NCBI GenBank assembly: GCA_903869825.1
Contig: CAIQAL010000016.1
Location: 34,269-98,268 of the forward strand
DNA from: an uncultured bacterium
GTDB taxonomy: Bacteria; Patescibacteriota; Minisyncoccia; Phycocordibacterales; UBA9973
Direction of reading: 5' to 3'
DNA length: 64,000 bases
The position numbers were made by a program, and so were the translations under genes. Shown here in pieces: positions 72 through 35,171 of the stretch. How positions within the stretch are numbered: the stretch's first letter is position 1; each line of letters starts with the position of its first letter. The notes under the pieces were generated by a model. The model saw nothing but the letters and a program-made list of their open reading frames with translations, searched no databases and had not been told where the DNA came from.

Positions 72-1820
72 TTAGAAAACTTCTTGCTGATAGCATTTAT
101 CACAATAAAAAATAAAATTTTCACTTGGATTAAGGACTGTTTCAATTTCTTTATTGCATTTTACACAGACTGCTTTGTATTTTTTGCCAGTTTTAACAAG
201 ATTCAACCTCCTTCTCATTCGGAGGAGTGGATGGATATTCGGTAAAGGTAATCCGGTTCTTCGGTAAAATTCAAGTTCTGACTGAGTTATTCGAAAAGGT
301 TTTCCGCTTTTTTCACATAATATTGCTTTGCTAACGATATCATCAGTAATCTCATTAATTGTTTTTGGCAAATCCGAGTATTTTACTATTTCCGTGTTGC
401 CAACATTTGTCTCCGGATCTTTGGCGGTATAACCACCAATTTTCTTAACTTCCTCTTCGCTTAACGGATAGCCATTTTGAGCCAAAGAAACATTATAAGC
501 TTGGGCACAAAAATTCAGACCAACTCCATCGCTATACTCTCCTCTTCCAAGCATCTCGAGTTTTATTTCATCAAGCATTCTAAAATATTCATCTTTTTCA
601 TATTGTTTATTTAAAATACAATAGGATTTATTTTGAAGACCAAAACACATGAAACAATTTGTTAAATTTTTCGAATTAAAAACAAAATCACAATCAACAC
701 AATACTTAGAGGACGCGGAAAACCTTATATTACTCGATTGCGAACCAACATTGGTGGTCATGTAAAGTGAACTTGCATGCCCTCCAGAAAACAGAAAATC
801 CATTGAGTCTTTATGGTTAATTGCCGCATCCGCATGTCGAACATTTTCTGAACCATTCGCGTCAATCACATTATATAAATTCCTGGAATTTTTTATATTT
901 ACACCAGAAACATTAGTTGAGGCAATGTTCCTGGTTCCGTTCATGGGAAGACTTCTGACTAATTTCCAGAATTTTTCTTCATAAGTAACCAAGTCATCAT
1001 GCGAGAGCGGATAAATTGAAGCAATAAATTTTTCATAATCCTCTTTCGAATATTGTTCATTCCAAATACAATATTTTGAATTTCTTAAGTTTACACAACC
1101 AAAACAGTTCTGACAATTACGGCAATCAAAAAGAAACATACTCTCGAGACAATTATTGGAAAAAATAAAAAATGATGATTTATAAATGTGATTCGAAGAC
1201 GCCCCCTCATATATAAATTCTGAATCATCTAAAATCATAGAGTCCATAACATTACGTACCCTATGAAGCATGGCAGAGTACCAAACATCTTCAGCATTAT
1301 AGCAACCAAAAGCATAATAAACATTTTTTGTATTACGTCCGCCATTTGAATAATCACTATTTATAGAAGACGGGTCACGATTCAAAAATGACGGCATAGG
1401 AAATTTCTTACGAAGATCAAACAACGTTTCTAGTGGGCTATCTCCTTTTTTATATTCAATCCCAAAAGAAAGTGCATCAAATTCATCACCAATAAAATAC
1501 TTATAATCATAAACGGGAAATGGACACTCCTCTGGAAGAATTGAAATCATCATTTCATTGTGCCCTGGAACATCACACTTGATTTTAAAGAGGTGTGACA
1601 TTGCCATATAAGGCAACCTGCGCATCCTTCTGCAGGTTGGACAAAAGTTTGGCGGTGGCACACGAAGAATTTTTAATAGTTTAATGTCTGTTTCTTCAAG
1701 ATTAAATTCCCCTTCGCAATATTTATGTACTCCCTGCCATTTACATTTTCGGGCATGAGGAACAAGAGTTTCCAAAACCTTATTTAAGGCACTATCAAAT
1801 TTTGGAGTCTTGCTTGTCAT
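72..1820 (-). CDS. Cysteine-rich protein of unknown function (paralog A); carries repeated CxxC zinc-ribbon-like modules including C-x2-C-x2-C-x2-C (CRNCQNCFGC)
   Basis: 582-aa ORF with many CxxC pairs. Two internal about 40-aa modules end in YC(I/M)xN(E/K)QYxK(D/E)(D/E)Y(E/F)(K/R)(F/M). The C-terminus has FRITQSELEFYRRTGLPLP followed by a CxxC...CxxC ribbon. Clearly homologous along its length to the ORF at 33615..35171. No recognised family. Confidence 0.6.
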   Translation of the reverse strand: MTSKTPKFDSALNKVLETLVPHARKCKWQGVHKYCEGEFNLEETDIKLLKILRVPPPNFCPTCRRMRRLPYMAMSHLFKIKCDVPGHNEMMISILPEECPFPVYDYKYFIGDEFDALSFGIEYKKGDSPLETLFDLRKKFPMPSFLNRDPSSINSDYSNGGRNTKNVYYAFGCYNAEDVWYSAMLHRVRNVMDSMILDDSEFIYEGASSNHIYKSSFFIFSNNCLESMFLFDCRNCQNCFGCVNLRNSKYCIWNEQYSKEDYEKFIASIYPLSHDDLVTYEEKFWKLVRSLPMNGTRNIASTNVSGVNIKNSRNLYNVIDANGSENVRHADAAINHKDSMDFLFSGGHASSLYMTTNVGSQSSNIRFSASSKYCVDCDFVFNSKNLTNCFMCFGLQNKSYCILNKQYEKDEYFRMLDEIKLEMLGRGEYSDGVGLNFCAQAYNVSLAQNGYPLSEEEVKKIGGYTAKDPETNVGNTEIVKYSDLPKTINEITDDIVSKAILCEKSGKPFRITQSELEFYRRTGLPLPNIHPLLRMRRRLNLVKTGKKYKAVCVKCNKEIETVLNPSENFIFYCDKCYQQEVF

Positions 1821-1834
1821 TTTATAAATAAAGG

Positions 1835-3526
1835 TTACATTCTTTCTGGTGCCTCAATCCCTAGAAGCTTCAGCCCATTTTTTATTACAATAGAAAAAGC
1901 TTCGGTAAGAGCGATTTTATATCCCGAATCTAAATTATCTTTATCAACGATTTTTGTGCTGCCATAAAAAGCATTAAAGGCTCGAGCAATTTCAGTTAAA
2001 TAAACTGCTATATAGTGAGGTTCAAATTCTTCCGCACTGCGAGAAACTATTTCTGGAAAACGATAGATAATTTTCTCAACTTCAGTTGTTTGCCATTCTT
2101 TAGGAATTAAATTATTAGAAACAATTTTTTCTTCGAGGGCCTTTTCTAAAATAGATTTCGCTCGGGCATACGAATATTGCAAGTATGGACCTGAGTCTCC
2201 TTCAAAAGAAATTGATTTATCGAAATCATAAATAATGTCTCCACCGATGGCGTTTTTCAAAATAGAATATTTGAGGGCTGAGACCGCCACTTGATTTACA
2301 AATACAACTCCCATGTCTCCCCTATTTGTTTCTTTTATTTTTTCAAGCACCCTTTCTGAAATAAGGAAAAGCAATGATTCCGCGGTGACAACGTCCCCCG
2401 TGCGCGATGACATTTTTCCGGTCGGGAGTCGTAACATTCCGTGTGAAATATGTTTTGTTTTTTCTGCTAAGTCAGGGAAAACCTGCTCCATCGCTTCCAA
2501 GAGCACTCGAAAATAATCATTCACTTCGTTTCCCGTAATCACAATTGAATTGGTATATGGATATTCCCCGTATTTAATTTTGGCCAAGCCAAGCTCCTTT
2601 GCTTCATAAGTCGGCAACCCTTCTTTGTTTACAAACACTCTGGTGTGAAGACTTGGATGAAAATTCTCTCCCTTAAACACAATCGCTCCTTCACTTTTTT
2701 CAAAAACATCTCCAATATTTTTTTCAACAATATCTTTTCCGAGTATCCCTGTCTCGCTTTCAAAAAAATAAAAGTCGAACTTCGTGCCAAGCTTTTTGTA
2801 AATCGTTTCAAAATAGTCGAGAGAAACTTTTCTGCCAGGCAAATAAAATTTTTCGCAAATTTCTTGGTCATTTTGATATATTTTTTTGTTTACTTCTTCT
2901 ATTTCCTTTTTTTCTGTTTCACTTTCAAGATATGCTCTTGATCCTTTCGCATACATTTCTCCCAAATATGAAACGGTAAACCTGCCTTCCATTTTATTTT
3001 TCATCATTGCCCAAACGGTCTTTGCGACGTGAAGCCCTATATCGCCTTGATAACAAGCTCTTTTCACTTCCGCTCCACTCGCTTCAACAATTCTTGAAAT
3101 TGATTCCCCAATGGTATTACTCATCAAATGCCCAATGTGCAATTCTTTAAAAGGGTTCGGATCGGTGTATTCCACTATTACTTTTTTCCCCATCAACCAA
3201 TTATTTTTACCAAAATTTTCTTTCTTTTCTAAAATTTCTTCAACACTTTTTGCAAAGAATTCCGTAGATAAATAAAAGTTTATAAAGCCGTTCTTGGTTT
3301 CAATCCTGGAAATTTCTTTTGGAATACCATTATTCATTTTATCAACCAGATTTTCTGCTAATACTCTTGGGTTCTGTTTTTCTTTTTTAGCAAGAACCAT
3401 TGCAACATTGGTCGAGTAGTCTCCCATACTCAAATCTGCCGGGTGCTCAAGTAAAATTTCATTGGTTTCTATACCAAGTTCTTTCAGGCCTTCTTTAATT
3501 AAATTTTTTATTTTTTCTTCGATCAT
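1835..3526 (-). CDS. argS: Arginyl-tRNA synthetase
   Basis: 563 aa with the class I HIGH motif (HIGHLMS) and a KMSK-like motif (KMSSRTG). Length and overall layout are typical of ArgRS. Confidence 0.85.
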   Translation of the reverse strand: MIEEKIKNLIKEGLKELGIETNEILLEHPADLSMGDYSTNVAMVLAKKEKQNPRVLAENLVDKMNNGIPKEISRIETKNGFINFYLSTEFFAKSVEEILEKKENFGKNNWLMGKKVIVEYTDPNPFKELHIGHLMSNTIGESISRIVEASGAEVKRACYQGDIGLHVAKTVWAMMKNKMEGRFTVSYLGEMYAKGSRAYLESETEKKEIEEVNKKIYQNDQEICEKFYLPGRKVSLDYFETIYKKLGTKFDFYFFESETGILGKDIVEKNIGDVFEKSEGAIVFKGENFHPSLHTRVFVNKEGLPTYEAKELGLAKIKYGEYPYTNSIVITGNEVNDYFRVLLEAMEQVFPDLAEKTKHISHGMLRLPTGKMSSRTGDVVTAESLLFLISERVLEKIKETNRGDMGVVFVNQVAVSALKYSILKNAIGGDIIYDFDKSISFEGDSGPYLQYSYARAKSILEKALEEKIVSNNLIPKEWQTTEVEKIIYRFPEIVSRSAEEFEPHYIAVYLTEIARAFNAFYGSTKIVDKDNLDSGYKIALTEAFSIVIKNGLKLLGIEAPERM

Positions 3527-3948
3527 TATTTTTTCCCGGTGGAACCAAAGGCCCCTTCACCTCGAGCCGAATCCGAAAGCTCGGCTACTTCTTCCAAGTC
3601 TACTATTGCCACTGGATAAATTATGAGTTGGGAAACTTTGTCTCCCTCTTCTACAGTATAAGGTTTATCGGATAAATTTACCAAGTGGGTATTGTATTCC
3701 CCCCGATAGCCCGCATCAAAAACTCCCCCCATATGAATAAGACCACTCTTCGAGATACTTGATTTATCTGCAACGATGGCCGCATACCCGGCTGGAAACT
3801 CAAGTGCAAAGCCATGGAAAAATCTGTGGTGTGCCATCGGTGGTATCGTCACTTCTTCCATCGAATACAAATCCATCCCAACGTCACCAGGGTGATAGTA
3901 CTTCGGCAGTTGAGCATCTTCTTTTAATTTTTTAATTTTGATTCTCAT
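3526..3948 (-). CDS. dut: dUTP diphosphatase
   Basis: 140 aa. The N-terminus MRIKIKKL...LPKY..PGDVGMDLY and the later GLIHMGGVFDAGYRGE are canonical dUTPase motifs. Confidence 0.85.
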   Translation of the reverse strand: MRIKIKKLKEDAQLPKYYHPGDVGMDLYSMEEVTIPPMAHHRFFHGFALEFPAGYAAIVADKSSISKSGLIHMGGVFDAGYRGEYNTHLVNLSDKPYTVEEGDKVSQLIIYPVAIVDLEEVAELSDSARGEGAFGSTGKK

Positions 3949-4420
3949 GTTTTTTTAACTCCATAAACTTTTTAAAATCATTTAAAAAAATTTCTGGTTT
4001 CTCTTTCAATAATTCATTTATCTCTTTTTCTGAAAACCATTTTAATTGCCCAACTTCTTCGTTTTGTTTTTTATATTTATAGTCGCTTTCAACAGTCACA
4101 GTAAAAAAATATGCAAAACAATCATCTAATCTTATTTTGGGACCAGGTTTTATCTTCAATCCCCTTAGGCCGATTTCTTCTTCCGCTTCTCTTAGCATAC
4201 AAGTCTCTGGTGTTTCCCCTTCTTCAACAACGCCTCCTGCTGCCGGTCCCCATAAACCCGGGCCATATCTTCGATTCAGAGATCTCTGGGCCAAAAGAAC
4301 ATTGCCATCTTTGTCCGTAACCCATAGCCCAGTTGCCCGAACAAGCTCTTCAATATATCTATCTGTTCTTTCTTTGTGACCTATTATTTCATCTTGTTCA
4401 TTTACGATTGGAATCCTCAT
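3932..4420 (-). CDS. NUDIX hydrolase
   Basis: Nudix box GGVVEEGETPETCMLREAEEEIGL (GX5EX7REUXEEXGU). Overlaps dut by 17 nt, consistent with an operon. Confidence 0.8.
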   Translation of the reverse strand: MRIPIVNEQDEIIGHKERTDRYIEELVRATGLWVTDKDGNVLLAQRSLNRRYGPGLWGPAAGGVVEEGETPETCMLREAEEEIGLRGLKIKPGPKIRLDDCFAYFFTVTVESDYKYKKQNEEVGQLKWFSEKEINELLKEKPEIFLNDFKKFMELKKHENQN

Positions 4421-4423
4421 ATA

Positions 4424-5119
4424 CTATTTAACTATTTTTTTAACTTTTTTATAAATCATTTCATTAATTATTTCCCGGGAAAAAATTTCTCCGTCTTCTG
4501 AACAATTAATCTTTGCCCAATTCTTTTGAGTTTTTGCAAGCCAAAGCGCGCTTTTGATGGAATTTTCCAAGTGCTCACGGTCATTCTCGTGAACATCTTT
4601 GTTCTTTTTTAAATATTTTCTTTTCATTTGACTACTCTCTCTGTGTTTCAAAATTTTTAAAACAACCTCGATTGGTAGACTTAAATAAAAAGTTACATCC
4701 GGTCGTGGAATTCCAAAGACTTCGTACTCCATTTCATTCAACCATTTAATAAAACTATTCCTCTTCCTGGTATCGCTTATTTTCCCTCCTTGGTGAATCT
4801 GGTTTGCGCTTACGTAGCGGTTCGCAATCACTACATATCCATCTTTGAGCCAACTCTCCATTTTCTCTTTTGATTGCCAGCGGTCTGCCGCAAAAGGGAT
4901 TGAGGCAATCTTGGGATGAACTTTTAAAAAGTTATAGTATTGTTCGGAAAGACAGTGCCCAGTAAAAGCTCCAAAGAAATTCTCATAGTACCTTGGAAAA
5001 TCTATCACCTTTACCTTTCGGCCATCTTTTTTGAGACGTTTAATCAGAAGGTCTGTCTGGGTCGCTTTCCCACTGCCGTCCGTGCCGTCTATCACTATTA
5101 ATTTCCCTTTTTTTGTCAT
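4424..5119 (-). CDS. tmk: Thymidylate kinase-like protein
   Basis: P-loop LIVIDGTDGSGKATQ matches the dTMP kinase family. At 231 aa it carries a C-terminal extension. Confidence 0.7.
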   Translation of the reverse strand: MTKKGKLIVIDGTDGSGKATQTDLLIKRLKKDGRKVKVIDFPRYYENFFGAFTGHCLSEQYYNFLKVHPKIASIPFAADRWQSKEKMESWLKDGYVVIANRYVSANQIHQGGKISDTRKRNSFIKWLNEMEYEVFGIPRPDVTFYLSLPIEVVLKILKHRESSQMKRKYLKKNKDVHENDREHLENSIKSALWLAKTQKNWAKINCSEDGEIFSREIINEMIYKKVKKIVK

Positions 5120-5145
5120 ATAGACATAATAGCAAAAATCCTACT

Positions 5146-18599: not shown

Positions 18600-20348
18600 T
18601 TACTCCGAAACTACTCGCAATACTTCTTCCAAGGAAGTATATCCTTCCACCGCTTTTAGGATACCATCTTCGAGCATTGTAGACATTCCTTCTTTCTTTG
18701 CTTGTTCTTCTATTTGGTCTTGAGAACTACCCCGAATAATTAACTCTTTAATACTGGAAGTCACCTTTAGTACTTCATGAATTCCAATGCGACCCGAATA
18801 TCCCAAATTATTGTCACTCCCTTTAACCGGCTTATAAAAAGGAACTTCTGCCCAAGTATCTTTTGGACCAATTGCTTTTTCAGTTTTAAGGAGAGCTAGC
18901 ACTCTTTCTAGATTAACAATTTTCTCCAAATTTTTTAACTCCGCATCGATTAAAAAATATTTTTCTTTCTCAGCAGTAAGTTTTCGAACAAGTCTCTGAG
19001 CGATAATAGTTTTGACGGTTGAAATTAATAAAAATGGTTCCACTTTCATATCAATCAATCTTGGGATAGCCCCAGCGGCCGAGTTCGTATGAATGGTCGA
19101 AAGTACCAAGTGCCCGGTTAGTGATGCATTCACCGCGAGGGCTGCTGTTTCGGTATCCCGGATTTCTCCAACCATTATTATATCGGGGTCTTGTCGAAGA
19201 AGAGTACGTAAGCCGTTGGCAAAAGTCATCCCGATTTCTGAGCGAACCTGAGTTTGATTTACTCTTGGCATCTGATACTCGATTGGGTCTTCAATGGTTG
19301 AAATATTTACTTCCGGACGATTTAAAATATCAAGCATCGTATATAGCGTAGTGGTTTTACCTGAACCAGTTGGACCAGTTGCTAAAATCATACCAATTTT
19401 TTGTTTCAAAGATTCATGAATTCTTTCCAAACCTTCACCGTGAAAACCAATCGTTTCAAGAGAAAGGCCATGAGAATTTTCTTTCAAAATTCTTATAACC
19501 GTTTTTTCTCCATAATAAGTCGGTAAGGTTGAAACACGAAAAGAAATTTTTTCACCATTCTGCTCTATTTTAAATCTTCCGTCCTGGGGCAATCTTTTTT
19601 CGTCCAATTTTAAATTTGAAAGAACTTTGATACGGGCAGTGATCCCTGGCGCAGCATTCTTATCCAAAATCATCGCGTCGTGCAATATTCCATCGATTCG
19701 ATACCGAACAGTCAATTCTGTTTCTCCCGGTTCGATATGAATATCGGAAGCATTTTGCAAAATTGCATGGAAGACAAGTGAGTCAACAATCTTCACCACC
19801 GGCAAATCTTCCGCCATTTCTTTTAACTCTTCTTCCGATTTTTCTCCTTCATCTTTTGAAACTGTTTTTATTGAAGAAGTCTCTTTTTGGATAATGTTAT
19901 CGAACTCCGCTTGTAAGCTTTTCCTATATAGCACCAGGGCTGACTTGATAGAATTTGAGTCAGTAAGGCGTGGTAAAATTTTTAAACCGGATCTTTTTTT
20001 AATAAAATCAGTTACTGCAATATCATCTACGTCGAGCATTGCAACTTCAAGTCCTGTATCACTTTTTTTATATGCAATAATATTATGATTTCGTGCAATT
20101 GGTTCCGGTATTAGCGAAAGAATCGCAATATCTATTTTTTGATTGGCTAAGTTTACAAAAGGAATCCCAAGAACGAATGCTTCCATTCTCCTTAAGTCTG
20201 CTTCGGAAATTTTTCCACTCGAAAGCAAGACGTCTCCGAACTTTTGTTTTTTTTCTTTGGCTATTTTTACCGCTTCTTCCAAATCATCCCGAGAAATAAG
20301 TTTTGACTCAAGGATAAATTTTTTTAATTGATCTTCGTCAATTTCCAT
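18600..20348 (-). CDS. pilB: Type IV pilus assembly ATPase PilB (GspE family)
   Basis: 582 aa with Walker A LATGPTGSGKTTTLY, Asp/His boxes and an N-terminal GSPII-type domain. Confidence 0.85.
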   Translation of the reverse strand: MEIDEDQLKKFILESKLISRDDLEEAVKIAKEKKQKFGDVLLSSGKISEADLRRMEAFVLGIPFVNLANQKIDIAILSLIPEPIARNHNIIAYKKSDTGLEVAMLDVDDIAVTDFIKKRSGLKILPRLTDSNSIKSALVLYRKSLQAEFDNIIQKETSSIKTVSKDEGEKSEEELKEMAEDLPVVKIVDSLVFHAILQNASDIHIEPGETELTVRYRIDGILHDAMILDKNAAPGITARIKVLSNLKLDEKRLPQDGRFKIEQNGEKISFRVSTLPTYYGEKTVIRILKENSHGLSLETIGFHGEGLERIHESLKQKIGMILATGPTGSGKTTTLYTMLDILNRPEVNISTIEDPIEYQMPRVNQTQVRSEIGMTFANGLRTLLRQDPDIIMVGEIRDTETAALAVNASLTGHLVLSTIHTNSAAGAIPRLIDMKVEPFLLISTVKTIIAQRLVRKLTAEKEKYFLIDAELKNLEKIVNLERVLALLKTEKAIGPKDTWAEVPFYKPVKGSDNNLGYSGRIGIHEVLKVTSSIKELIIRGSSQDQIEEQAKKEGMSTMLEDGILKAVEGYTSLEEVLRVVSE

Positions 20349-20413: not shown

Positions 20414-23400
20414 TTATCTTTCAAACCATTTTATAACTTTTTTGTAGATGCAAGGAGCTGGTTCCCCGTTGTTCGTCGCTTTCGGGTCAATACAGTTTCC
20501 TCCGCCATCAACATTGCACTGTGGCGGATTAACGGCACCATTTATACATTGATCACAAGTTGGGTAAGGAGTTAGGCCGGCTGGGCAGTGCCCTCCCAAA
20601 CCAGGTTGGGTACCAGGTTGGGTACATGATGCATTTGACCCGGTAGGTGAACCAAGACATTCCCAAGTCCAGCCATTTGTTGAATCTCCTGTTCCCTTCG
20701 CGCTATTTCCTTTTACGCAACCATAGTGACCTTGAGCACATTCGGCATTAACCTTTTTATCAGTACAAATCCTTTCATCCCAGAAAGTTTTATTCTCACA
20801 ACTTGAAGTTATAGTCTTTAAATCAAGTGTCACATTATTGTTGAGAAGTCTAAACGTCGAAGTATCATGCGGAATAGTTAATTTCCCTTGTCCTGGATTT
20901 CCCGTTCCGACTACCCCTACCATTTCTTGGACAACTTCCGTGGTAGCTCCTTGTGGATTAATTACACTCCAGACAAAATGCATCAAGCAATCGCTTCCAT
21001 TGAGGGGGATAATGCAAGACAGTGCATCAGGAGTCAAAATTCCGGTCATTCCTCCGATTACATTAAACGATGCCCAGTTACTACAGTTATTTGTTTCATT
21101 TGACTCAGGAACCATCGCCGGTGGAATAGTATTTCGATTAGTTTTGTCAGCACAGACCCGACCATAGTACGTTCCTGGCACGCTAAAGGTATAAGTTGTT
21201 GACATGGTATCACTTCCGCCGGCAGCAAGAGCCAGCATCGAGACTGCTGGAAGGTCCACTAGTCTCCCTGTTCCGTTTACTCCAGTTGAAAATTGAGCAA
21301 AGTTTTTAAAGATTGTTCCAGCTGCTCCAGTTCCCACCGGCCCGAGGTTGGTGATGGTTGAGACAAAAGAAGTAGGGCTATTGATAGCAATAGGAAGTTT
21401 TTTTGCTGATGGAACGCTTGCAATAAGATCGGGTAGTTTCGTTGGAGCGGTTACCGTTATCGGGGTCCAAGGACTAGCACAATTGTTTCCTTCGTTTGAT
21501 TCTGTTACTTCTGCTGGAAGGACAGTACTCGGGCTAGTTTTGTCAGCACAAGCCCGTGCATAGTAAGTTCCTGGAGAAGTGAAGGTACATAGGTAACTTA
21601 GAGTACCACTCGCGCCTGCCGCAAGAGTAATCATTGATGTCCCCGGAAAAGTCGCGTAACAAGATGGAAGGCTTCCTCCTCCTGTTCCACCAGAAGCAAT
21701 CGCTTCTCCCGGGAAGAAAATGGTAGCCAGCATTTTTTTATACTTTTCCAAGAAACCTGTATTTCCATTCCCATTTCCAGGATTGTAATTTAGAACTTGA
21801 ATAAAATTATGAAATGAATTACCAGTCGTATTATTCCCGATATTTGTGATTTGAGCGGCAAGAGTAACCGAATCGTTGGCCGCAACTGTAGTTGGAGTTA
21901 CTTGGCCTGCTACTAAGTCTGGTTTCGGCCCAGAAGGAGTGACAGTAACGGTTGTCCAGTCGCCACAGTTATTTCCCTCGTTTGTTAATTCATTTACTTC
22001 GTCTGGTGGAGTGGAAACGTGACTGGTATTACGATTGTATTTATCGGCACAAGCTCGTACCCACCACATTCCAGCTGTCGTAAATGTATATTTTGGATAA
22101 GTTATGCTGATAGTTTCTCCAGCCGCAAGTGCTGACGTAACGGGAATAGCAGGAGAAAGATCCTGGATTCCTGTTAAGGCATACGCCTTATTAAATATTT
22201 TATCAAAAATATTTTTTGGAGAATTGTAACCAAGTAGTGGAGGAGTTGGGTCAGTGTCGGTAACTTGGAAAAAGTTATGGAACCCGTTTCCAGTTGGCAG
22301 AGTTCCAACATTTCTGATCGTTGCAATCAGATCAGTCTTGACACCAAATATTACTGAACTCGGAGTGGACGGATCAGCCGTCAAGTCCGGGGCGTTCGGA
22401 ACGGTCACAGCAACAGTCGCATGATCAGTACCACTCCCTACGGGATTTGAATCAGTAGCGGTAAAAGTAAAGTTTCCAGCGCTTTGGAAAGGGCCAGCGA
22501 CAAATATAAAAGGATTTTGTGATTGACAATTTAGGGTGGAAAACCCTGGAAAACTAGAAACCACTTGGCAAGTATCACTATCGGGGTGCTCTACAGAAAA
22601 TTGAAGTGTCATGCCAGTCTTAATGTTATTATTTTGGGGTGTGATAATAACTGTCGGCGGATAGATATCATTAAAATTAATGTTAATTGTCCCATACGAC
22701 CACAATTCAGTAACCTGACTGGCTTGTGCTCCATTAGTCAAAGAAGAAATAAATTGCCCCAACCTACCAAAAAGACCATCCGACTTTGCAAGGTTATTTT
22801 TTTTGGGCAAAGCACTGAGATACTTAACACATGCTGCATTGTATGTGTGTATTCCTGCCTGTGAGGAGTTCTCATATTGAATTGCGACAGAACCCGAAGC
22901 TGTCCCATCTGACAAAATTGTATTTCCTTCTTTAATAGTACAGTTATCTGCTGTCAGATTTGTATCCCAGCTTATATTTGTCGTCTGGTTCAGAGAAACA
23001 GGATTTAAGTCCGCTGACATACTCACTATTGGAGGATTTGCCCCATTTCCCCCGCCACCGCCACCGCCACCGCCACAACCTGCCCCTACTGTGTAAGGAA
23101 TAGTAAGTGAACCATCATAACCTCCGTAGTCTGGTGACCACTTAAAATAGACGGTCATATTATAGCAGCCATCAATCGATGGAGCCAAAAAATTAGAATC
23201 TGTTGTTGTTGTCCAGGCTACATCACAACCACCAGAATTACACGCTGTATTATATTCTCCTTCTAGTCCGTTAAATGTGACTTTCACAGGAGGACCAATT
23301 ATTCCAAGGTAACCACTCGCGGTTTGTCGCAATCTTACATCCATTTGCTCTCCTGCAGTATAATTACTCTTATTCATTAAGACATAACCGGAACAATGAG

Positions 23401-23620
23401 CTACAGTGTACCCTTGGGATGCAAAATAGCCACATTCAGCGTCAGTGTAATTAGTTTGAGATGCTTTGGCTAAATTGATTGGAACACCAAACCCAAATAA
23501 AGCGAGAAAGAAAACGACGGAGAAAATTTTTATTAAAAAAAGAGCACCATTTGAATTTGAATTTTTTGTTTCAGATTCTTTTTTTAAAACAGTACCAAAA
23601 AAGATTGATAGTTTCTTCAT
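20414..23620 (-). CDS. Giant secreted surface protein with three CARDB-like domains, a poly-Gly linker and a Cys-rich C-terminal module
   Basis: 1068 aa with an N-terminal signal/transmembrane segment. Three repeats end ...ACADKTNRNT..P.EV.ESNEGNNC, matching the CARDB C-terminal EsnEtNN signature. Contains GGGGGGGGGNG. The C-terminal 100 aa are Cys-rich. Confidence 0.65.
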   Translation of the reverse strand: MKKLSIFFGTVLKKESETKNSNSNGALFLIKIFSVVFFLALFGFGVPINLAKASQTNYTDAECGYFASQGYTVAHCSGYVLMNKSNYTAGEQMDVRLRQTASGYLGIIGPPVKVTFNGLEGEYNTACNSGGCDVAWTTTTDSNFLAPSIDGCYNMTVYFKWSPDYGGYDGSLTIPYTVGAGCGGGGGGGGGNGANPPIVSMSADLNPVSLNQTTNISWDTNLTADNCTIKEGNTILSDGTASGSVAIQYENSSQAGIHTYNAACVKYLSALPKKNNLAKSDGLFGRLGQFISSLTNGAQASQVTELWSYGTININFNDIYPPTVIITPQNNNIKTGMTLQFSVEHPDSDTCQVVSSFPGFSTLNCQSQNPFIFVAGPFQSAGNFTFTATDSNPVGSGTDHATVAVTVPNAPDLTADPSTPSSVIFGVKTDLIATIRNVGTLPTGNGFHNFFQVTDTDPTPPLLGYNSPKNIFDKIFNKAYALTGIQDLSPAIPVTSALAAGETISITYPKYTFTTAGMWWVRACADKYNRNTSHVSTPPDEVNELTNEGNNCGDWTTVTVTPSGPKPDLVAGQVTPTTVAANDSVTLAAQITNIGNNTTGNSFHNFIQVLNYNPGNGNGNTGFLEKYKKMLATIFFPGEAIASGGTGGGSLPSCYATFPGTSMITLAAGASGTLSYLCTFTSPGTYYARACADKTSPSTVLPAEVTESNEGNNCASPWTPITVTAPTKLPDLIASVPSAKKLPIAINSPTSFVSTITNLGPVGTGAAGTIFKNFAQFSTGVNGTGRLVDLPAVSMLALAAGGSDTMSTTYTFSVPGTYYGRVCADKTNRNTIPPAMVPESNETNNCSNWASFNVIGGMTGILTPDALSCIIPLNGSDCLMHFVWSVINPQGATTEVVQEMVGVVGTGNPGQGKLTIPHDTSTFRLLNNNVTLDLKTITSSCENKTFWDERICTDKKVNAECAQGHYGCVKGNSAKGTGDSTNGWTWECLGSPTGSNASCTQPGTQPGLGGHCPAGLTPYPTCDQCINGAVNPPQCNVDGGGNCIDPKATNNGEPAPCIYKKVIKWFER

Positions 23621-29200: not shown

Positions 29201-29230
29201 ATTATTATTAACTTCGATAAAAATCAAAAA

Positions 29231-29473: not shown

Positions 29474-29485
29474 TAAAACCTAGCC

Positions 29486-29515
29486 AAAAATCCCCGACCT
29501 TGGGGATTTTTGGTA
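29486..29515 (+). terminator. Rho-independent terminator
   Basis: Stem AAAAATCCCC / GGGGATTTTT with loop GACCTT. Confidence 0.7.
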
Positions 29516-29557
29516 ATATTTGAAAATAAATCTTATTTAGTATAAGATACCAATACT

Positions 29558-30637
29558 ATGAAAATAACCACAAAAAAATTACCAAAAAGTGAAATGGAAA
29601 TCGAAGGAGAACTTGAAGCGGAAGTTTTTGAAACATATTACGGAAAGGCCCTTAAGAAAATCGGAGAAAATGTTGAAATCGATGGTTTCCGAAAAGGCAA
29701 AATACCAGAAAATATTTTGACCACCAAAGTCCCGGAAATCCATGTTTTAGAGGAGATGGCAGAAATGGCCTTGTCCGAACTTTATCCAAAAATTATCGAA
29801 GATGAAAAAATAGAAGCAATTTCCCGACCTGACATTTCTATCACAAAACTTGCCCGAAACAATCCCCTCGGATTTAAAATCAAAACAGCTATTCTGCCAG
29901 AAACAAAATTACCAGATTACAAAGAAATCTCAAAAAAAATAATTACAGGGTTAACCGAAGAGGAAAAAAGTACTGAAGTCACCGAAAAAGAAGTTGAAGA
30001 TACCATAATGGATATCAGGAAATCCCGAGCTCCAAAAGTTCATATGGCTGAACCAATTGAACCACACGTCCACAAAGAAGGAGAAGAACACTCTCACGAA
30101 GAAGAAATTCCGGCCGAATTACCGGAACTAAATGATGAATTCGTACAAGCCCTTGGCCCATTTAAAGATGTCGCTGACTTCAAAGAAAAATTGAAAGAAA
30201 ACATCAAACTCGAAAAAGGCAACCAAGCAAAAGAAAAGACCAGACTAAAAATCGTTGAAGGCATAATCGAAAAAACCGAAACTGAGATGCCAGAAATTTT
30301 AATCGAAGTTGAACTGGACAAAATACTTTACCGGATGGAGTCCGACATTACCGCGATGGGCCTCAAATTCGAAGATTATTTGAAACACTTAAACAAAACA
30401 GTGGTGGATATCAGAAAAGAGTTCCGAAACGATGCTAAAAAGAAAGCGAAACTTGGACTTGTAATAAATAAGATAGCTCAAACGGAAAAAATTACTGCTG
30501 ACCCAGAACAAGTTGCAAGCGAAGTTGCGATGATCTTGGAACAGTACAAAGAGGCTGACCCAGAGCGCGCCCAAATGCATGCCGAAAACGTCCTAACGAA
30601 CGAAAAAGTTTTTCAATTCCTGGAGAATCAGCAGTAG
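29558..30637 (+). CDS. tig: Trigger factor lacking the central PPIase domain
   Basis: N-terminal ribosome-binding domain with GFRKGKIP, and a C-terminal chaperone domain (DEFVQALG...). The approximately 100-aa FKBP segment is replaced by a short His/Glu-rich linker. Classic position upstream of clpP. Confidence 0.75.
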   Translation: MKITTKKLPKSEMEIEGELEAEVFETYYGKALKKIGENVEIDGFRKGKIPENILTTKVPEIHVLEEMAEMALSELYPKIIEDEKIEAISRPDISITKLARNNPLGFKIKTAILPETKLPDYKEISKKIITGLTEEEKSTEVTEKEVEDTIMDIRKSRAPKVHMAEPIEPHVHKEGEEHSHEEEIPAELPELNDEFVQALGPFKDVADFKEKLKENIKLEKGNQAKEKTRLKIVEGIIEKTETEMPEILIEVELDKILYRMESDITAMGLKFEDYLKHLNKTVVDIRKEFRNDAKKKAKLGLVINKIAQTEKITADPEQVASEVAMILEQYKEADPERAQMHAENVLTNEKVFQFLENQQ

Positions 30638-30714
30638 TGTTATAATTAATTATAGAATTTTTTTACCAAAAACTTCATCAAAGGTTAATATTATTAGTTT
30701 AATATATAAACATT

Positions 30715-31308
30715 ATGTTAATACCAACCGTTATTGAAAAATCACAATTTGGGGAAAGAGCTTATGATATTTATTCTCGTCTCTTGCGTGAGCGAATAGT
30801 TTTTTTAGCCGGACCGATTGATGACAATGTGGCAAACATCGTTATCGCCCAACTTCTTTTCTTGGAGTCAGAGGATCCAAAGAAAGATATTTTCTTTTAT
30901 ATCAATTCTCCAGGAGGATCGGTTACTTCAACTATGGCCATCGTTGATACGATGAACCACATTCGACCAGACGTTTCCACTTTTTGCGTCGGCCTGGCTG
31001 CTTCTGGTGCTGCCATTATTTTGTCCGCCGGGAAAAAAGGAAAGAGGTATGTTTTGCCAAATGCCGAAATTATGATTCACCAACCACTCGGTGGCGTTGA
31101 AGGCCAAGCAACCGATATTGCAATAACCGCAAAACATATTTTGAAAACAAAAGATAACCTAAACAAACTATTGGCAAAAAATACCGGAAAGCCGCTCTCC
31201 CAAATAGAAAAGGACGCTGAACGCGATTTCTTTATGGATGCTGACGAAGCTCAAAAATACGGCATCGTTGACGAAATTGTAACCAAGTCAAAAGCAATAG
31301 TTAAATAA
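30715..31308 (+). CDS. clpP: ATP-dependent Clp protease proteolytic subunit
   Basis: 197 aa with ClpP core motifs ([10 protein letters not shown], catalytic Ser in GLAASGAA, His in MIHQP). Confidence 0.9.
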
Positions 31309-31317
31309 TCGTTAAAA

Positions 31318-31345
31318 AGAGGACGAATCGTCCTCTTTTTTGATT
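31318..31345 (+). terminator. Rho-independent terminator
   Basis: Stem AGAGGACGA / TCGTCCTCT followed by TTTTTTG. Confidence 0.7.
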
Positions 31346-31530
31346 CCCTAGACAAAACTGATAGCTTTTGGTATATTGAGTAAGTCAGATTTAAAAATTT
31401 ATTTAAATTGGTTTATAGGAATATTCCATATATGAGAAGCATCTTTAACGGAAATTTTCACATCTTTAAGAATAAGAAGAAAATCGAACCGCAAATATAG
31501 TGGCGTGTTTTTGTAGGCCAAAATAGGCTT

Positions 31531-33063
31531 ATGAGTACAACATTAACGATACTACTAATCGGAGCGATCGCGCTCCTCTTGGGCGTTCTAATAGGATATT
31601 ATTTGAGAGTAATTGTTGCCTTGGGGAAAAGGCGCTCTATCGAAATCGACATCAAACAAATGATGGTCGGAGCGAAAGAAGAATCCCAGAGAATTTTGGA
31701 CGAGGCAAAAAGCAAGTCAGAAAAAACACTCGCTGAATTAAAGGGTGAAGAAAAAAAGAAAGAAATCGAGTTCAAAGACACCGAAAAGAGACTCATTAAG
31801 AAAGATGAGCTTTTGGACGCACGCCAGGCTGAGATGAACAAAGAGGTAGAAGGAATCAAACTCAAGGTCGAAGAAGTAAAAAAAATTCAAGAACGGGTCT
31901 CAAAGATTGAGGAAGACAAGCGGCTCGAACTTGAAAGGGTAGCTCGTCTTTCCGAAAAAGACGCAAAAGAAGAACTTTTGAAAGATATTGAAAAAAGATA
32001 TGAGGAAGATATCCTAGCAAAAATCCAAAAATTAGAAAACAACAACGAAGAGAAGCTCGAAGAAAGAGCAAAAGAAATTTTGGCTACTTCTATTCAACGT
32101 TTGGCTGTTTCAACTGCATCAGACTTGATGACCACGACCGTGGCTATCCCAAATAATGAAATTAAAGGGAAAATCATTGGAAAAGAAGGTAGAAATATCC
32201 GCGCTTTTGAACGAGTAGCCGGTGTTGAATTGATTGTGGATGATACCCCGGGCTCGATTGTTATTTCTTCGTTTGACCCGGTTCGAAGACAAGTAGCAAG
32301 AGTCGCCCTTGAGAATTTAATCTTGGACGGACGTATCCAGCCGGCTAAAATTGAAGAAATCGTAGATAAAGCTAAAGAAGAAATCAATAAAATCATCAAA
32401 GAAAAAGGAGAACAAGCAGTATACGAGTGCGGAATCTTTAATTTTGACCCTCGAATTGTTGCAATCATTGGGCGTTTGTATTTCCGAACTAGTTACGGGC
32501 AAAATGTTCTGCAACACTCGATTGAAATGTCTCACATTGCCGGAATGTTGGCAGAAGAACTGCATGCTGATGTCGCTATCGCTAAAGCGGGAGCCCTTGT
32601 ACACGATATCGGGAAAGCACTCGACCATGAAGTCCAAGGAACTCATATTGATATTGGAATGAGAATTCTGCAGAAGTTTGGGGCTGATGAGCGCATCATT
32701 ACTGCAATGAAATCCCATCACGAAGACTATCCTTATGAAACCATTGAAGCGATTATCGTCCAAACAGCGGACGCCATATCAGGCGGACGACCTGGCGCAA
32801 GACGAGATTCGGTAGAAAACTACTTGAAACGCTTACAAGAACTTGAAGCTTTGGTAAATGGCTTCCCGGCAGTTGAAAAATCCTATGCTCTCCAAGCAGG
32901 CCGTGAAATAAGGATATTTGTGACCCCAGAAAAAATTTCAGACGCCGAAGCAAAACTAATGGCCCGAGATATTGCCACCAAAATCGAACAAGAACTAAAA
33001 TACCCTGGTGAAATCAAGGTGACAATGATCCGTGAAACCAGAATCATCGAATACGCAAGATAG
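31531..33063 (+). CDS. rny: Ribonuclease Y
   Basis: N-terminal transmembrane helix, coiled coil, a KH domain, and an HD domain (HSIEMSHIAG...HDIGK). Confidence 0.85.
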   Translation: MSTTLTILLIGAIALLLGVLIGYYLRVIVALGKRRSIEIDIKQMMVGAKEESQRILDEAKSKSEKTLAELKGEEKKKEIEFKDTEKRLIKKDELLDARQAEMNKEVEGIKLKVEEVKKIQERVSKIEEDKRLELERVARLSEKDAKEELLKDIEKRYEEDILAKIQKLENNNEEKLEERAKEILATSIQRLAVSTASDLMTTTVAIPNNEIKGKIIGKEGRNIRAFERVAGVELIVDDTPGSIVISSFDPVRRQVARVALENLILDGRIQPAKIEEIVDKAKEEINKIIKEKGEQAVYECGIFNFDPRIVAIIGRLYFRTSYGQNVLQHSIEMSHIAGMLAEELHADVAIAKAGALVHDIGKALDHEVQGTHIDIGMRILQKFGADERIITAMKSHHEDYPYETIEAIIVQTADAISGGRPGARRDSVENYLKRLQELEALVNGFPAVEKSYALQAGREIRIFVTPEKISDAEAKLMARDIATKIEQELKYPGEIKVTMIRETRIIEYAR

Positions 33064-33074
33064 ATTTTTTGCGC

Positions 33075-33102
33075 TTGCGTCAAAAAACCCTTAGTATATA
33101 AT
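33075..33102 (+). promoter_or_regulatory. Sigma70-type promoter for hup
   Basis: TTGCGT, a 16-nt spacer, then TATAAT. Confidence 0.45.
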
Positions 33103-33183
33103 ATATAAGTAGTAATTGTTTGCTAATTGGCTACGAATATAAGTAGCCGGTCGAGAAATTATAAGAAAAAAACTTAAAATATT

Positions 33184-33456
33184 ATGAATAAACAAGGATT
33201 AGTAGAATGGGTACACGGAAAGTTAGGTGGCACCAAAGTACAGGCAGAAGAAATCGTTGATGGATTGTTTGATACGATCATCTCCACCATGAAAAAGGGA
33301 GACGAAGTATCAGTCGCTGGCTTCGGAATCTTCTCAACCAAAGCACGTGCTGCAAGAATGGCTCGTAATCCAAAAACTGGAGAACAAGTTAAAGTAGCTG
33401 CAACCACTGTTCCAAAATTCAGAGCGGCAAAGGCTTTGAAGGACGCTGTAAAATAA
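33184..33456 (+). CDS. hup: DNA-binding protein HU
   Basis: 90 aa of the HU/IHF family (GFGIFSTKARAARMARNPKTGE). Confidence 0.9.
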   Translation: MNKQGLVEWVHGKLGGTKVQAEEIVDGLFDTIISTMKKGDEVSVAGFGIFSTKARAARMARNPKTGEQVKVAATTVPKFRAAKALKDAVK

Positions 33457-33480
33457 TTTTATCTCGAGATAAAAACAAAA

Positions 33481-33515
33481 GCACCCTGAGATTGTCGAAG
33501 GGTGTTTTTGTTTTT
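33481..33515. terminator. Bidirectional rho-independent terminator between convergent hup and Cys-rich gene B
   Basis: Stem GCACCCT / AGGGTGT flanked by A-run and T-run. Confidence 0.6.
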
Positions 33516-33614
33516 AAAATTAATATATCTCTTGATTATAACAATAATCACAATATACAATTTCTAGTCTGTCTGGAGCATAAGCTGTTTCAAATTCATT
33601 CGGACAACCTTCTT

Positions 33615-35171
33615 TCATGCATTTTCGGTGCCAGAGCTTACGAGGATTTCGTTTTGCCATTCTCTCTCCTTATGTCGACATTCAAAATCTTTATGGGGCA
33701 GAGGCAAATTCATTCTCTTATAAAATGACAACTCTGCTTGGGTAATTCGAAAGTTTTTCTTGCACTCCTCACAAACAAATATTTCTTTCAAAATATCTTC
33801 GGAAATATCAAAAATACTACTTGGTATCTCTTTTAAGGTTTCCAACCCGTATGTTCCAGTTGTTTTCTCTTGCCAACGAAAGCCTCTTTTCAATGATTCT
33901 TCTTTTGTTAAAGGAAAATAATCGTGAGCTAGAGTTTCATTATAGCAAAAAGGTGCAAGATTAGCAGGAAAATATTGTCCAAAGACACTGTTTTGTTTTA
34001 ACTCTACCTCAATTTTTTCTTTTAGTTTAAAATATTCTTCTTTGGAATATGTCTTATTAAGAATCATACACTCACCTTTTCGAATGGCATTACACCCGAG
34101 CCCATTTACTAGATGATGGCAGTTTTCACAATATTCAACCCCACTACAATAGAAAACGAAAGCGGAATTTTTTAACTGGCTACCTTCCAAAGCTCCCATA
34201 ATGTTATACCCAAACTGGGACTTGTAATAATAATTGTTACAATCCCAACTATCAATTGGACTTTCTGTGTCTGTCATATAAGAACAATTTTTGGCATCAT
34301 AAGTGTCATAGAGTAGTACTCCTTGGTGACAATTGTACAAATAATCTCCAGTGACGTTGTTACATTTGTTTTGAGAAGCGAATTTTCGGATAGTTTTTTC
34401 TTTTAATCGTTCGAATTCTTTTTTAGCTTTTTCAATACTTTCGTAATTTTTTAGAATTTCGGCTTTTTTCTTTTCATATTCTTCTTTCTCGTATTTCACA
34501 TTGAAAATGGCATTGGTTAAGTGCCTGCCATTGGTGCAAAAGATACAATTACTCGAATCACGCATGTTATAGCAAAACAAAAGATCGCTGGAAGATTGGC
34601 ACTGCTCACAGAACATGCATTTGAAACATTTTCGGGAATCTAGACACTCGTAACAAAGTTCCGATTCGTGTAGAAATGCACAGTCGACACAAAATTTATC
34701 CCGTTGCAAAAGTCTGCTATACATACAATCCTCATTGTAGTCAGCCGCAAAAATCATGTAGCAATCCTTGTTTTCGGCTGAGCCATTTGTGTAATCACTT
34801 CGAACATTATTTACAGCAGCCATGCTTTGTCTTGGCACTTTCTTTTGCAATTCTTTGTATTGTTCAAAAAATGTTTTAGTTCGGTCATAATCCACGCCAA
34901 AACTTTTTGGGTCCCAGCCGTCACTCCACCAACAATCATGACAGTAAACTTGGAAATCCGACTCTGGAGAATAAACCGTTATTATGTCTTTTCTACAGAG
35001 ATCACATTGTCTTTTGTAAAGAGTCCGTTCATTTCGAAAAACTAAACGTCTAGCCATCCGACAATCGGAACAGTAAAGTGGAGGAGCAGTTTTCATCTGC
35101 TCGTAAAAAATCATATCCGCGTCCCGGATTTCAAACTCTTGATTACATGTCTTACAAATTTCTTTTGTCAT
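33615..35171 (-). CDS. Cysteine-rich protein of unknown function (paralog B); carries repeated CxxC zinc-ribbon-like modules including C-x2-C-x2-C-x2-C (CFKCMFCEQC)
   Basis: 518 aa. Colinear with ORF 72..1820: it shares the N-terminal ribbon C..CR..RRL, two internal modules ending YSKEEYFKLK, and the C-terminal FRITQAELSFYKRMNLPLP. Confidence 0.6.
   Translation of the reverse strand: MTKEICKTCNQEFEIRDADMIFYEQMKTAPPLYCSDCRMARRLVFRNERTLYKRQCDLCRKDIITVYSPESDFQVYCHDCWWSDGWDPKSFGVDYDRTKTFFEQYKELQKKVPRQSMAAVNNVRSDYTNGSAENKDCYMIFAADYNEDCMYSRLLQRDKFCVDCAFLHESELCYECLDSRKCFKCMFCEQCQSSSDLLFCYNMRDSSNCIFCTNGRHLTNAIFNVKYEKEEYEKKKAEILKNYESIEKAKKEFERLKEKTIRKFASQNKCNNVTGDYLYNCHQGVLLYDTYDAKNCSYMTDTESPIDSWDCNNYYYKSQFGYNIMGALEGSQLKNSAFVFYCSGVEYCENCHHLVNGLGCNAIRKGECMILNKTYSKEEYFKLKEKIEVELKQNSVFGQYFPANLAPFCYNETLAHDYFPLTKEESLKRGFRWQEKTTGTYGLETLKEIPSSIFDISEDILKEIFVCEECKKNFRITQAELSFYKRMNLPLPHKDFECRHKEREWQNEILVSSGTENA

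Follow-up and report, generated by a model that had tools for sequence, protein, structure and literature searches.

Among curated protein families, the closest to the subject of this report are zf_Tbcl (PF13451), zf_Tbcl_2 (PF23477), and TIGR04272, models of single domains of 37-48 residues with four cysteine ligands per finger and no function assigned. Small Methanosarcina CxxC-x17-CxxC (TIGR04272) proteins bind zinc, as measured by inductively coupled plasma mass spectrometry (PMC12704099). Further points of comparison are the double fingers of LIM proteins (CRP1/CRP2; 1ctl, 1b8t), the type IV coupling proteins, and the beta-helix of the Tenebrio antifreeze protein (TmAFP; 1ezg), which has 12 residues per turn and an inward-facing core of period 3 (PMC8038014). 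The two genes considered here, paralogs A and B, lie about 32 kb apart on a 64,000-nucleotide stretch of DNA from an uncultured bacterium of the Patescibacteria (contig CAIQAL010000016.1, positions 34,269 to 98,268), referred to below as the window. The curated models recognise the terminal modules alone of the encoded proteins, which score 15-17 bits against cut-offs of 24-36; in the family to which A and B belong, two fingers are fused per module and a module stands at both ends of a protein of 550-580 amino acids (aa). The best explanation, tentative when taken as a whole, is that A and B are old, Patescibacteria-specific proteins with two zinc modules (M), two beta-solenoids (S), and an acidic region (X) in the order M-S-S-X-M, which would act as paralog-specific scaffolds working with a VirD4-like ATPase. 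The structural half of this explanation is well supported, and the functional half is a hypothesis drawn from gene neighbourhood.

An architecture of M-linker-S1-S2-X-M in a soluble cytoplasmic protein is well supported for both genes. Each M would comprise ~90 residues forming two consecutive treble-clef (LIM-like) fingers, with a conserved basic helix after each finger. Each S would be a beta-solenoid of 8-9 turns of 12 residues, with a small or hydrophobic residue at every third position, capped by a YCILNKQYSKEEY strand and a helix. The parts of the two genes are as follows.

72..1820, reverse strand: paralog A, complete open reading frame (ORF), 582 aa
1485..1745, reverse strand: A N-terminal module, residues 26-112
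1035..1358, reverse strand: A solenoid 1, residues ~155-262; ~8 twelve-residue turns, ends with CRNCQNCFGC..YCIWNEQYSKEDY and a helix
585..935, reverse strand: A solenoid 2, residues ~296-412; ends with YCILNKQYEKDEY and a helix
330..542, reverse strand: A acidic conserved region X, residues ~427-497
75..329, reverse strand: A C-terminal module, residues 498-582
33520..35171, reverse strand: paralog B, repaired extent, 549 aa; 38 cysteines, four predicted zinc sites intact
33615..35171, reverse strand: paralog B, uninterrupted ORF only, 518 aa
34893..35171, reverse strand: B N-terminal module, residues 1-93
34455..34793, reverse strand: B solenoid 1 and helix, residues ~127-239; contains CFKCMFCEQC
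33990..34394, reverse strand: B solenoid 2 and helix, residues ~260-394; ends with CMILNKTYSKEEY
33783..33989, reverse strand: B acidic conserved region X, with YFPANLAPFCYNETLAHDYFPL

The ORFs of 582 and 518 aa on which the original prediction was based are present at these coordinates, as are all of the strings quoted from them: FCPTCRRMRRL, YCSDCRMARRL, CRNCQNCFGC, and CFKCMFCEQC, together with the YC(I/M)xN..YSKE(D/E)Y endings and the FRITQ(S/A)EL(E/S)FY(R/K)R..LPLP motif. The two proteins align end to end by BLASTP with 30% identity over 517 aa (E 4e-61), far beyond chance, and their description as divergent paralogs is upheld. The cysteines are a different matter. A has 24 and repaired B 38, with 13 positions in common (nine of them in the terminal modules), not the dozens of conserved cysteines that had been reported. 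Nor do the two quoted C-x2-C-x2-C-x2-C strings occupy homologous positions: in the BLASTP alignment CFKCMFCEQC of B pairs with IYKSSFFIFS of A, and CRNCQNCFGC of A pairs with MRDSSNCIFC of B. Neither tblastn nor a search with the family hidden Markov model (HMM; hmmsearch) found a third family copy in the window. The 559-aa ORF at 42849..44528 was considered as a degenerate third copy and rejected, having no hmmsearch match and none of the motifs.

The two terminal modules of the family are homologous, the N-terminal ~90 residues matching the C-terminal ~87 by hhalign with a probability of 99.9% (E 3e-31). Their consensus, C..C...F.I...D..FY.....P.P..C..CR..RR...RNER.LYKR.C..C....T.Y.P.....VYC..CY, contains two four-cysteine sites per module, numbered here 1 to 4 along the protein. 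The two-knuckle, four-ligand pattern of a treble clef is found at sites 1 and 4 of A and at all four sites of repaired B. In A, site 1 is intact (C26, C35, C60, C63), site 2 is degenerate with C82 the sole survivor of four ligands, site 3 (FRITQSELEFYRR..LPLP) is degenerate with C502 the sole ligand left, and site 4 is the intact final ribbon C552-x2-C555-x17-C573-x2-C576. Column conservation indicates that three of the four site-2 cysteines are missing in all A-type orthologs. In B, site 1 consists of C6, C9, C34, and C37 and site 2 of C56, C59, C77, and C80. A-type proteins thus have two sites, both inner ones being lost, and B-type proteins have all four. Of 81 diverse representatives, 75 have a complete site 1 and 79 a complete site 4 (four Cys/His ligands), and the inner sites 2 and 3 are each complete in 48; the inner sites tend to be lost jointly (odds ratio 4.1, p 0.003, without phylogenetic correction).

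At the level of the family, the terminal module is related to zf_Tbcl and zf_Tbcl_2. The zf_Tbcl_2 model matches 54 of 88 members and zf_Tbcl 36 of 88 (E <=0.1; best E 8.8e-10 and 4e-8, respectively), and several database members carry precomputed PF23477 or PF13451 matches. A and B individually remain below the Pfam gathering cut-offs of 27 bits for zf_Tbcl_2 and 24 bits for zf_Tbcl. Residues 547-580 of A match zf_Tbcl_2 with E 0.006 and 16.7 bits; B matches zf_Tbcl over residues 4-42 and zf_Tbcl_2 over residues 49-81, its two scores being 15.6 and 14.8 bits; and the two scores of a B ortholog (P0002) are 24.5 and 17.7 bits. Against TIGR04272, A scores 15.2 bits and P0002 16.6 bits, below the NCBIfam cut-off of 36 bits. 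The C-x2-C-x17-C-x2-C spacing is exact in A, and repaired B has C-x4-C-x17-C-x2-C.

The double finger is common to the family and to LIM proteins, and the last finger of the family aligns with the second LIM finger over W-H-x2-C...C-x2-C...Y-C-x2-C-Y (E 0.004-0.017, family profile against PDB sequences). The likeness is partial: only this one finger matches, marginally, the spacing between fingers differs, and the first finger of the family carries a ~24-residue insert (F.I...D..FY.....P.P) that is absent from LIM. The Pfam LIM model matches 4 of 88 members, weakly (E <=0.1), and a pair of LIM fingers was not recovered. Against all PDB sequences, the family profile found nothing besides this marginal second-finger match. 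The DnaJ zinc finger (CxxCxGxG, with HPD) is not represented, there being no DnaJ Pfam match in 88 members.

The putative metal-binding role of the terminal ribbons is well founded, because their cysteines are near-invariant and match treble-clef Pfam models. Structural zinc is expected, with good support, at two sites in A and four in B, and it would be limited to the terminal fingers. The original prediction had proposed a metal-binding family and had looked to conservation of the cysteine pattern among homologs as a check. Both the proposal and the check hold for the terminal ribbons; the internal cysteines vary among homologs and exchange freely with Ser, Val, Leu, and Ile.

The two internal segments had been described as further zinc-ribbon-like modules, of which the proteins were said to be built. 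They read instead as beta-solenoids with 12-residue turns that arose by internal duplication (S1 against S2, hhalign E 5e-35). The register is visible when the sequences of A and P0002 are set in rows of 12. In S1 and S2, autocorrelation of the residues C, V, I, L, F, M, S, and A is positive at every multiple of 3 and maximal at lag 12, a pattern absent from control regions outside S1 and S2. Cysteine pairs are enriched 2.2- to 3.2-fold at spacings that are multiples of 3 and depleted at others; spacings of 3, 9, and 12 are favoured, and 6 is the least enriched of the short multiples of 3. AlphaFold models of A (predicted local distance difference test, pLDDT, 87.8; predicted template modelling score, pTM, 0.89) and of P0002 (pLDDT 88.6, pTM 0.88), built from two 140-sequence alignments (A1 and A2), have short strands every 12 residues, with solenoid confidence (pLDDT ~70-85) below that of the termini. 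The solenoids, above all the helical hairpin between S1 and S2, are the most variable parts of the protein. The central ~370 residues match nothing among curated models, Foldseek against the PDB gave no match with E <1, and sequence searches with A and B against solved structures gave no match.

S1 and S2 share with TmAFP the 12-residue turn and the core at every third position, a likeness that is one of analogy, not homology. The ice-binding TmAFP is small and secreted, with disulfide bonds and a TxT face, whereas the family proteins are cytoplasmic, lack a TxT face or TCT repeat, and hold their solenoids between zinc modules. In addition, the C2-C8 disulfides of TmAFP need a spacing of 6, whereas the family favours 3, 9, and 12. 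Other beta-solenoids among the nearest systems are curli CsgA (8c50), the ryegrass ice-binding protein (3ult), and the left-handed beta-helix acyltransferases; the hexapeptide repeat of the last kind (18-residue turn, [LIV]-G-x4, Pfam Hexapep) was not found. Judging from the periodicity and the TmAFP precedent, the period-3 residues probably face inward.

The C-x2-C-x2-C runs, including the C-x2-C-x2-C-x2-C motifs that drew attention to these proteins, would be explained by this rule of period 3 within 12: they appear to be core-pattern positions that happen to be cysteine, not zinc ribbons. The composition of the core agrees. Where Cys makes up 30% or more of a central column (32 columns), 56% of residues are Cys, 18% Ser, and ~15% Val, Leu, or Ile; only four central positions exceed 70% Cys; and the number of cysteines in the central region ranges from 9 to 35 across the family (median 23). 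The solenoid 1 ladder of A-type proteins reads Val/Val/Val/Ile/Ser/Ser where B has Cys. The internal cysteines therefore most likely serve in packing the solenoid core and would form no conserved ligand set.

Region X and the termini are better conserved than the solenoids. X has the near-invariant motif FFP...SPFAYNET..A...FPL; in A the near-invariant residues are Y442-N443 of the AYN(E/V) motif, P452, and G463. Its net charge is about -7 across the family, and that of the C-terminal module about +5. The whole protein is acidic (net charge ~-7, median isoelectric point, pI, ~6). Family proteins contain no transmembrane segment and no hydrophobic N-terminal segment, and thus no classical signal peptide.

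The B gene is longer than its uninterrupted ORF. The features that bear on its extent are as follows.

33661..33669, reverse strand: B frameshift site, a (GA)n run with 2 nt extra relative to every ortholog
33520..33660, reverse strand: B out-of-frame C-terminal ribbon, 46 codons and a stop; a complete zinc ribbon
33470..33516, unstranded: hairpin with A- and U-tracts on both sides, between the convergent genes for B and HU (33184..33456)
35180..35208, reverse strand: promoter-like TTGACA-17-TATTCT in the 55-nt gap upstream of B (consensus scan, 10/12 matches)

The 518-aa ORF is truncated because the extra GA shifts the frame. The missing ribbon, MAKRNPRKLWHRKCMKEGCPNEFETAYAPDRLEIVYCDYCYNQEIY, lies in another frame and ends at a stop at 33520-33522, and deletion of GA in silico restores a reading frame of 549 aa. 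A tblastn search of the window with A matches this out-of-frame ribbon (33606..33523), and B-type orthologs (~550 aa) continue with HK(D/E)RM(S/L/A)KRNPRKLWHRKC...YC.xCYQQEVY past the point at which B breaks off. The 518-aa product is also recorded in public databases (P0001), and the GA insertion could be a true truncation or an assembly or slippage error. Because the tail of B is encoded out of frame, the further C-terminal ribbon originally ascribed to A is not specific to A: it does resemble the N-terminus of B (residues 501-577 of A against 5-81 of B, BLASTP E 6e-9), and repaired B has it as well. The hairpin directly after the repaired stop, which agrees with the longer gene model, resembles a bidirectional intrinsic terminator (33468-33522 folds at -18.4 kcal/mol, z -6.7, with 0 of 200 shuffles equally stable); its long loop caused a simple terminator scan to overlook it. 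The promoter-like site is a candidate identified by its match to consensus, which is no evidence of function.

The family is large, and essentially all of its named matches fall within the Patescibacteria. A HMMER search of 1.84 billion representatives returned at least 3,502 clusters (50% identity) at E <=1e-3, of which 1,296 reach E <=1e-30, nearly all 545-600 aa long; clustered at 90% identity, the homologs number 3,461 clusters for B and 2,770 for A. Named homologs are 'hypothetical', 'uncharacterized', or 'CxxC-x17-CxxC domain-containing' and are all assigned to Patescibacteria, Paceibacterota, or Nomurabacteria, in line with the lineage-specific family foreseen in the original prediction. 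Its statement that neither protein could be assigned to a known family is also borne out, as no curated family spans the whole protein in searches of Pfam, NCBIfam, and PADLOC. In PADLOC, A had no match and P0002 had two weak, unrelated partial matches (E 4e-4 and 7e-4, ~17 bits). A tblastn search of 50,697 phage and 72,556 plasmid records found nothing. In the literature searched by Pfam and TIGRFAM names and by zinc ribbon, solenoid, tandem array, and type IV coupling protein in the candidate phyla radiation (CPR), the family is not described.

A scan of one genome per species yielded more than 583 loci, of which 80 were retained by similarity to the B-type alignment and are biased toward B-like paralogs. 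They represent Nomurabacteria, Paceibacterota/Minisyncoccia, Peregrinibacteria, Peribacteria, Gracilibacteria, Abawacabacteria, Harrisonbacteria, and Staskawiczbacteria; other taxon labels on two short contigs probably reflect mis-binning. A-type orthologs, from Nomurabacteria and Paceibacterota, are almost all 580-585 aa long with 56-86% identity, and B-type orthologs are ~550 aa long with 69-84% identity. Both types occur together on one 97,953-bp contig in at least one relative. The paralogs are old: in 92% of cases a protein is closer to its best counterpart at a locus of another genome than to its best paralog at its own locus (median identity 54% vs 43%). A 731-aa protein from outside the window (P0247) is a family member whose ribbon cysteines are mostly lost and whose N-terminus is joined to a GNAT acetyltransferase domain (Pfam E 3e-8); it is a single case of uncertain meaning, and its Ala/Arg-rich composition suggests an organism of higher GC.

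In relatives, family genes commonly form arrays. Genomic context was counted in 79 related loci of up to 22 kb each, many from akin genomes, with neighbours clustered and then named by Pfam. By the family HMM, a locus holds 1-10 copies (10 in L052, 9 in L033, and 8 each in L019, L049, and L077), and arrays run to 10 copies in 21 kb; 14 copies in ~30 kb occur jointly in L039 and L052, two overlapping loci on contig JBAZWO010000002. The arrays are operon-like in spacing and orientation: co-orientation applies to 244 of 245 family ORFs, and neighbouring copies are 50 nt or less apart in 80 of 162 gaps (21 overlaps and 59 gaps of 1-50 nt). The order of paralogs is partly recurrent, for example B-A and M-B-A in several loci. 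The recurrent neighbours are as follows.

TrmB-family helix-turn-helix regulator: 22/79 loci, usually divergent and directly upstream
Soluble P-loop ATPase of ~730 aa: 22/79 loci, usually adjacent and on the same strand
DnaK: 13/79 loci
GrpE: 7/79 loci
PaaX-like regulator: 7/79 loci
ZIP zinc transporter: 6/79 loci, within 10 kb; five of the six are single-copy loci

Presence of the ATPase follows copy number: none of the 26 single-copy loci has it, compared with 9 of the 29 that have two or three copies and 13 of the 27 that have four or more. The pairing of ATPase and array is seen in Paceibacteria-type and Gracilibacteria-type loci alike, with ATPases of ~700-770 aa inside or beside the arrays of L019, L046, L077, L039, and other loci (e.g., L039:13896-16076). 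A recurrent gene order, seen in several Paceibacteria-type loci, is grpE-FAM-FAM-(paaX-like)-dnaK-ATPase-FAM-FAM...-dnaJ, where FAM is a family gene. Arrays and ATPase are interleaved with grpE, dnaK, and dnaJ in L034, L053, L023, L056, L064, L046, L026, and L036, the PaaX-like regulator lying on the opposite strand directly before dnaK. Replacement of DnaJ by the arrays that follow dnaK was considered and rejected, as a true dnaJ lies downstream in the same loci.

The nearest relatives of the ATPase are VirD4, TraD, TrwB, and HerA. Among type IV coupling proteins with solved structures TrwB is the closest (E 2e-4), DotL being the other near one; the VirD4 and TraD models of NCBIfam are matched far under their family cut-offs, and a match to CedD is weak. 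The coupling protein DotL of Legionella cooperates with a set of small adaptors, to which the arrays may be analogous. Unlike TrwB, VirD4, and DotL, the array-adjacent ATPases contain no membrane segment, and they have two unusual architectures, with Walker A near residue 335 (Gracilibacteria-type) or near residue 42 (Paceibacteria-type). A published survey of 2,918 Patescibacteria genomes counted 5,713 VirD4-like coupling-protein homologs, of which only 148 lie near virB4; most of these genes are located away from a type IV secretion system, and the authors considered exaptation to be possible (PMC12102498).

On the scaffold explanation, A and B would be rigid, paralog-specific binding scaffolds or adaptors, a role suggested by gene neighbourhood. 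The conserved termini and region X could present a docking or functional surface to a common partner, and the variable solenoid surfaces could give each paralog its specificity. The soluble VirD4/TraD-like pumping ATPase, often encoded within a grpE-dnaK-dnaJ operon, is the likeliest partner, because its genes turn up repeatedly beside multi-copy arrays of two CPR classes. The position within an Hsp70 operon is a hint of joint regulation with protein quality control.

Several observations weigh against this explanation. No ATPase or dnaK gene is located next to A or B in the window, and single-copy loci never carry the ATPase, so A and B may act without it. The counts for ATPase, DnaK, and TrmB come from loci picked by similarity to B and from related genomes, and are not independent; they therefore suggest a link and do not amount to an independent statistical test. 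No annotated homolog bears on function. Finally, Cys stays the majority residue (56%) at the 32 central core columns, which exceeds the demand of packing, so that metal or thiol chemistry in the Cys-rich cores (e.g., of B) is possible.

A broader form of the scaffold explanation, possible and yet somewhat unlikely, is that the family and the orphan VirD4/TraD-like ATPase make up a new CPR-wide machinery, often accompanied by a divergent TrmB gene and grpE-dnaK-dnaJ. A coupling ATPase would have been exapted to act with up to 14 or more zinc-capped solenoid adaptors or subunits, and such a machinery would account for the thousands of secretion-unlinked coupling-protein genes in Patescibacteria.

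The terminal modules might alternatively grip DNA or RNA by their Arg-rich helices, with the solenoids as spacers and the ATPase moving the nucleic acid. This account, which takes up the nucleic-acid-binding candidate of the original prediction and partly overlaps the scaffold explanation, is rather unlikely. Treble clefs are frequent in nucleic-acid-binding proteins. The basic residues after the second CxxC are near-invariant (R37, R41, R45, and N46 in the N-terminal module; R498 and R502 in the C-terminal module), the C-terminal module has its net charge of ~+5, and the ATPase belongs to a DNA-pumping superfamily, with TrwB as closest solved relative (E 2e-4) and the weak CedD match. However, the whole protein is acidic (net charge ~-7, pI ~6), the sole solved-structure match of the family profile is to LIM fingers, which are modules of protein binding that mediate protein interactions in eukaryotes, A-type proteins lack two of the four fingers, and the flanks of A, B, and related loci are mixed housekeeping genes without a consistent theme of DNA or RNA.

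Tight packing of the array genes, co-oriented and with overlaps or very short gaps, would also suit co-translated paralogs that assemble into a hetero-oligomeric filament, tube, or cage, with the ATPase and Hsp70 perhaps responsible for building or remodelling it. The paralogs are of ancient origin and individually kept across genomes, lengths are constrained (almost all A-type proteins at 580-585 aa, B-type at ~550 aa), the order of paralogs is partly conserved (B-A, M-B-A), and head-to-tail pairing between the homologous end modules is conceivable. Such an assembly is nonetheless distinctly unlikely, given that copy number varies from 1 to at least 14 per locus and that A and B are isolated genes ~32 kb apart in this genome.

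That the cysteine ladders of the solenoids bind iron-sulfur (Fe-S) clusters or chains of metal ions, in a redox or metal-storage protein, is improbable. The high central cysteine content (median 23, range 9-35), with Cys the commonest residue (56%) at the 32 core columns, is what such a protein might have; the enriched spacings of 3, 9, and 12 could unite four thiols across two adjacent turns; the lower pLDDT of the solenoids (~70-85) is compatible with a missing cofactor; and a ZIP zinc transporter gene lies within 10 kb in six loci. Set against this are the small number of central positions with more than 70% Cys (four), the non-homologous positions of the motifs quoted from A and B, and the Val/Ile/Ser ladder that replaces the cysteines of B in A-type solenoid 1. 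No Fe-S match was found in Pfam or NCBIfam among the 88 members scanned, nor a Fer4-type match there or in A and B; the CxxCxxCxxxCP ferredoxin signature is absent and the C-x2-C runs are not conserved in position. The ZIP link looks like local synteny of single-copy loci. The Fe-S or redox candidacy raised by the original prediction thus finds no support, there being no ferredoxin-type Pfam match and no conserved ligand set.

Family genes adjoin a coupling-protein homolog, are multi-copy and diversified, and encode a positively charged C-terminal module, as many type IV substrates have positively charged C-termini. It is nevertheless extremely improbable that the proteins are effectors delivered by a VirD4-like coupling protein to the host cell of an episymbiont: the ATPases lack a membrane segment, only 148 of 5,713 VirD4-like genes in Patescibacteria are near virB4 (PMC12102498), paralogs are up to 84-86% identical between genomes, unlike fast-evolving effectors, family proteins have no hydrophobic N-terminal segment, and folded, zinc-bound solenoids would be hard to translocate.

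The surroundings of A and B in the window (GC 34-43%) include housekeeping genes of the sort expected in a small genome, namely argS, dut, tmk, RNase Y, HU, PNPase, type IV pilus ATPase, H+-pyrophosphatase, recJ, and uvrD. The argS gene (1835..3526; Pfam) precedes A, which lies downstream across a gap of 14 nt, and B sits between HU and a 175-aa ORF (35227..35754, reverse strand). A TrmB-like gene (46167..46934, reverse strand), of the same kind as the divergent upstream neighbour of B-type orthologs in relatives, is ~11 kb from B, and the CCA-adding enzyme, UPF0102, and M23 peptidase genes that neighbour B-type orthologs in relatives are 16-20 kb away. The distance of these genes from B suggests rearrangement in this genome. 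The 175-aa ORF was considered as a dedicated partner of B and rejected, as its homologs lie beside family genes in L003 and L037 and have no family gene beside them in L084, L086, and L087; the ORF itself has no family match, belongs to a group of 28 hypothetical proteins, and has no similarity to the ATPase.

Other features of the window were noted in passing. There is no Pfam match for the ORFs at 57457-60348 (forward strand, 963 aa) and 42849-44528 (reverse strand, 559 aa); the latter has an N-terminal hydrophobic segment, and its product is probably exported or membrane-anchored. A 1,068-aa ORF at 20414-23620 (reverse strand), with CARDB as its sole Pfam match, lies a short way downstream of the same-strand gene for a pilus-type ATPase (18600..20348, Pfam T2SSE) and may encode a cell-surface protein. 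Four tRNA genes (Gly-GCC, Arg-TCG, Pro-TGG, and Gly-TCC) at 52626-53728 adjoin the CCA-adding enzyme gene, and a fifth, Leu-CAG, is at 45376-45458.

Thousands of these proteins are already known as hypothetical database entries, and their end domains are catalogued, yet no curated family, solved structure, or paper describing the family was found. The analysis assigns the family an architecture and tells real zinc ligands apart from cysteines that most likely pack the core. For the window itself, it yields a corrected gene model for B and annotates A and B at the level of domains. A beta-helix of 12 residues per turn is rare, the beetle antifreeze protein being the sole described example found, and the orphan VirD4-like ATPases, whose role is still at issue in the literature (PMC12102498), are here put forward as a concrete partner. 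The size of the family, its restriction to the CPR, its old multi-copy operons, its unusual helix, and its link to an orphan ATPase make it a worthwhile target. The genomes of Patescibacteria are tiny, at ~1 Mb. Some of them devote ~24 kb of one region to 14 old, individually conserved copies, and the family is therefore unlikely to be dispensable.

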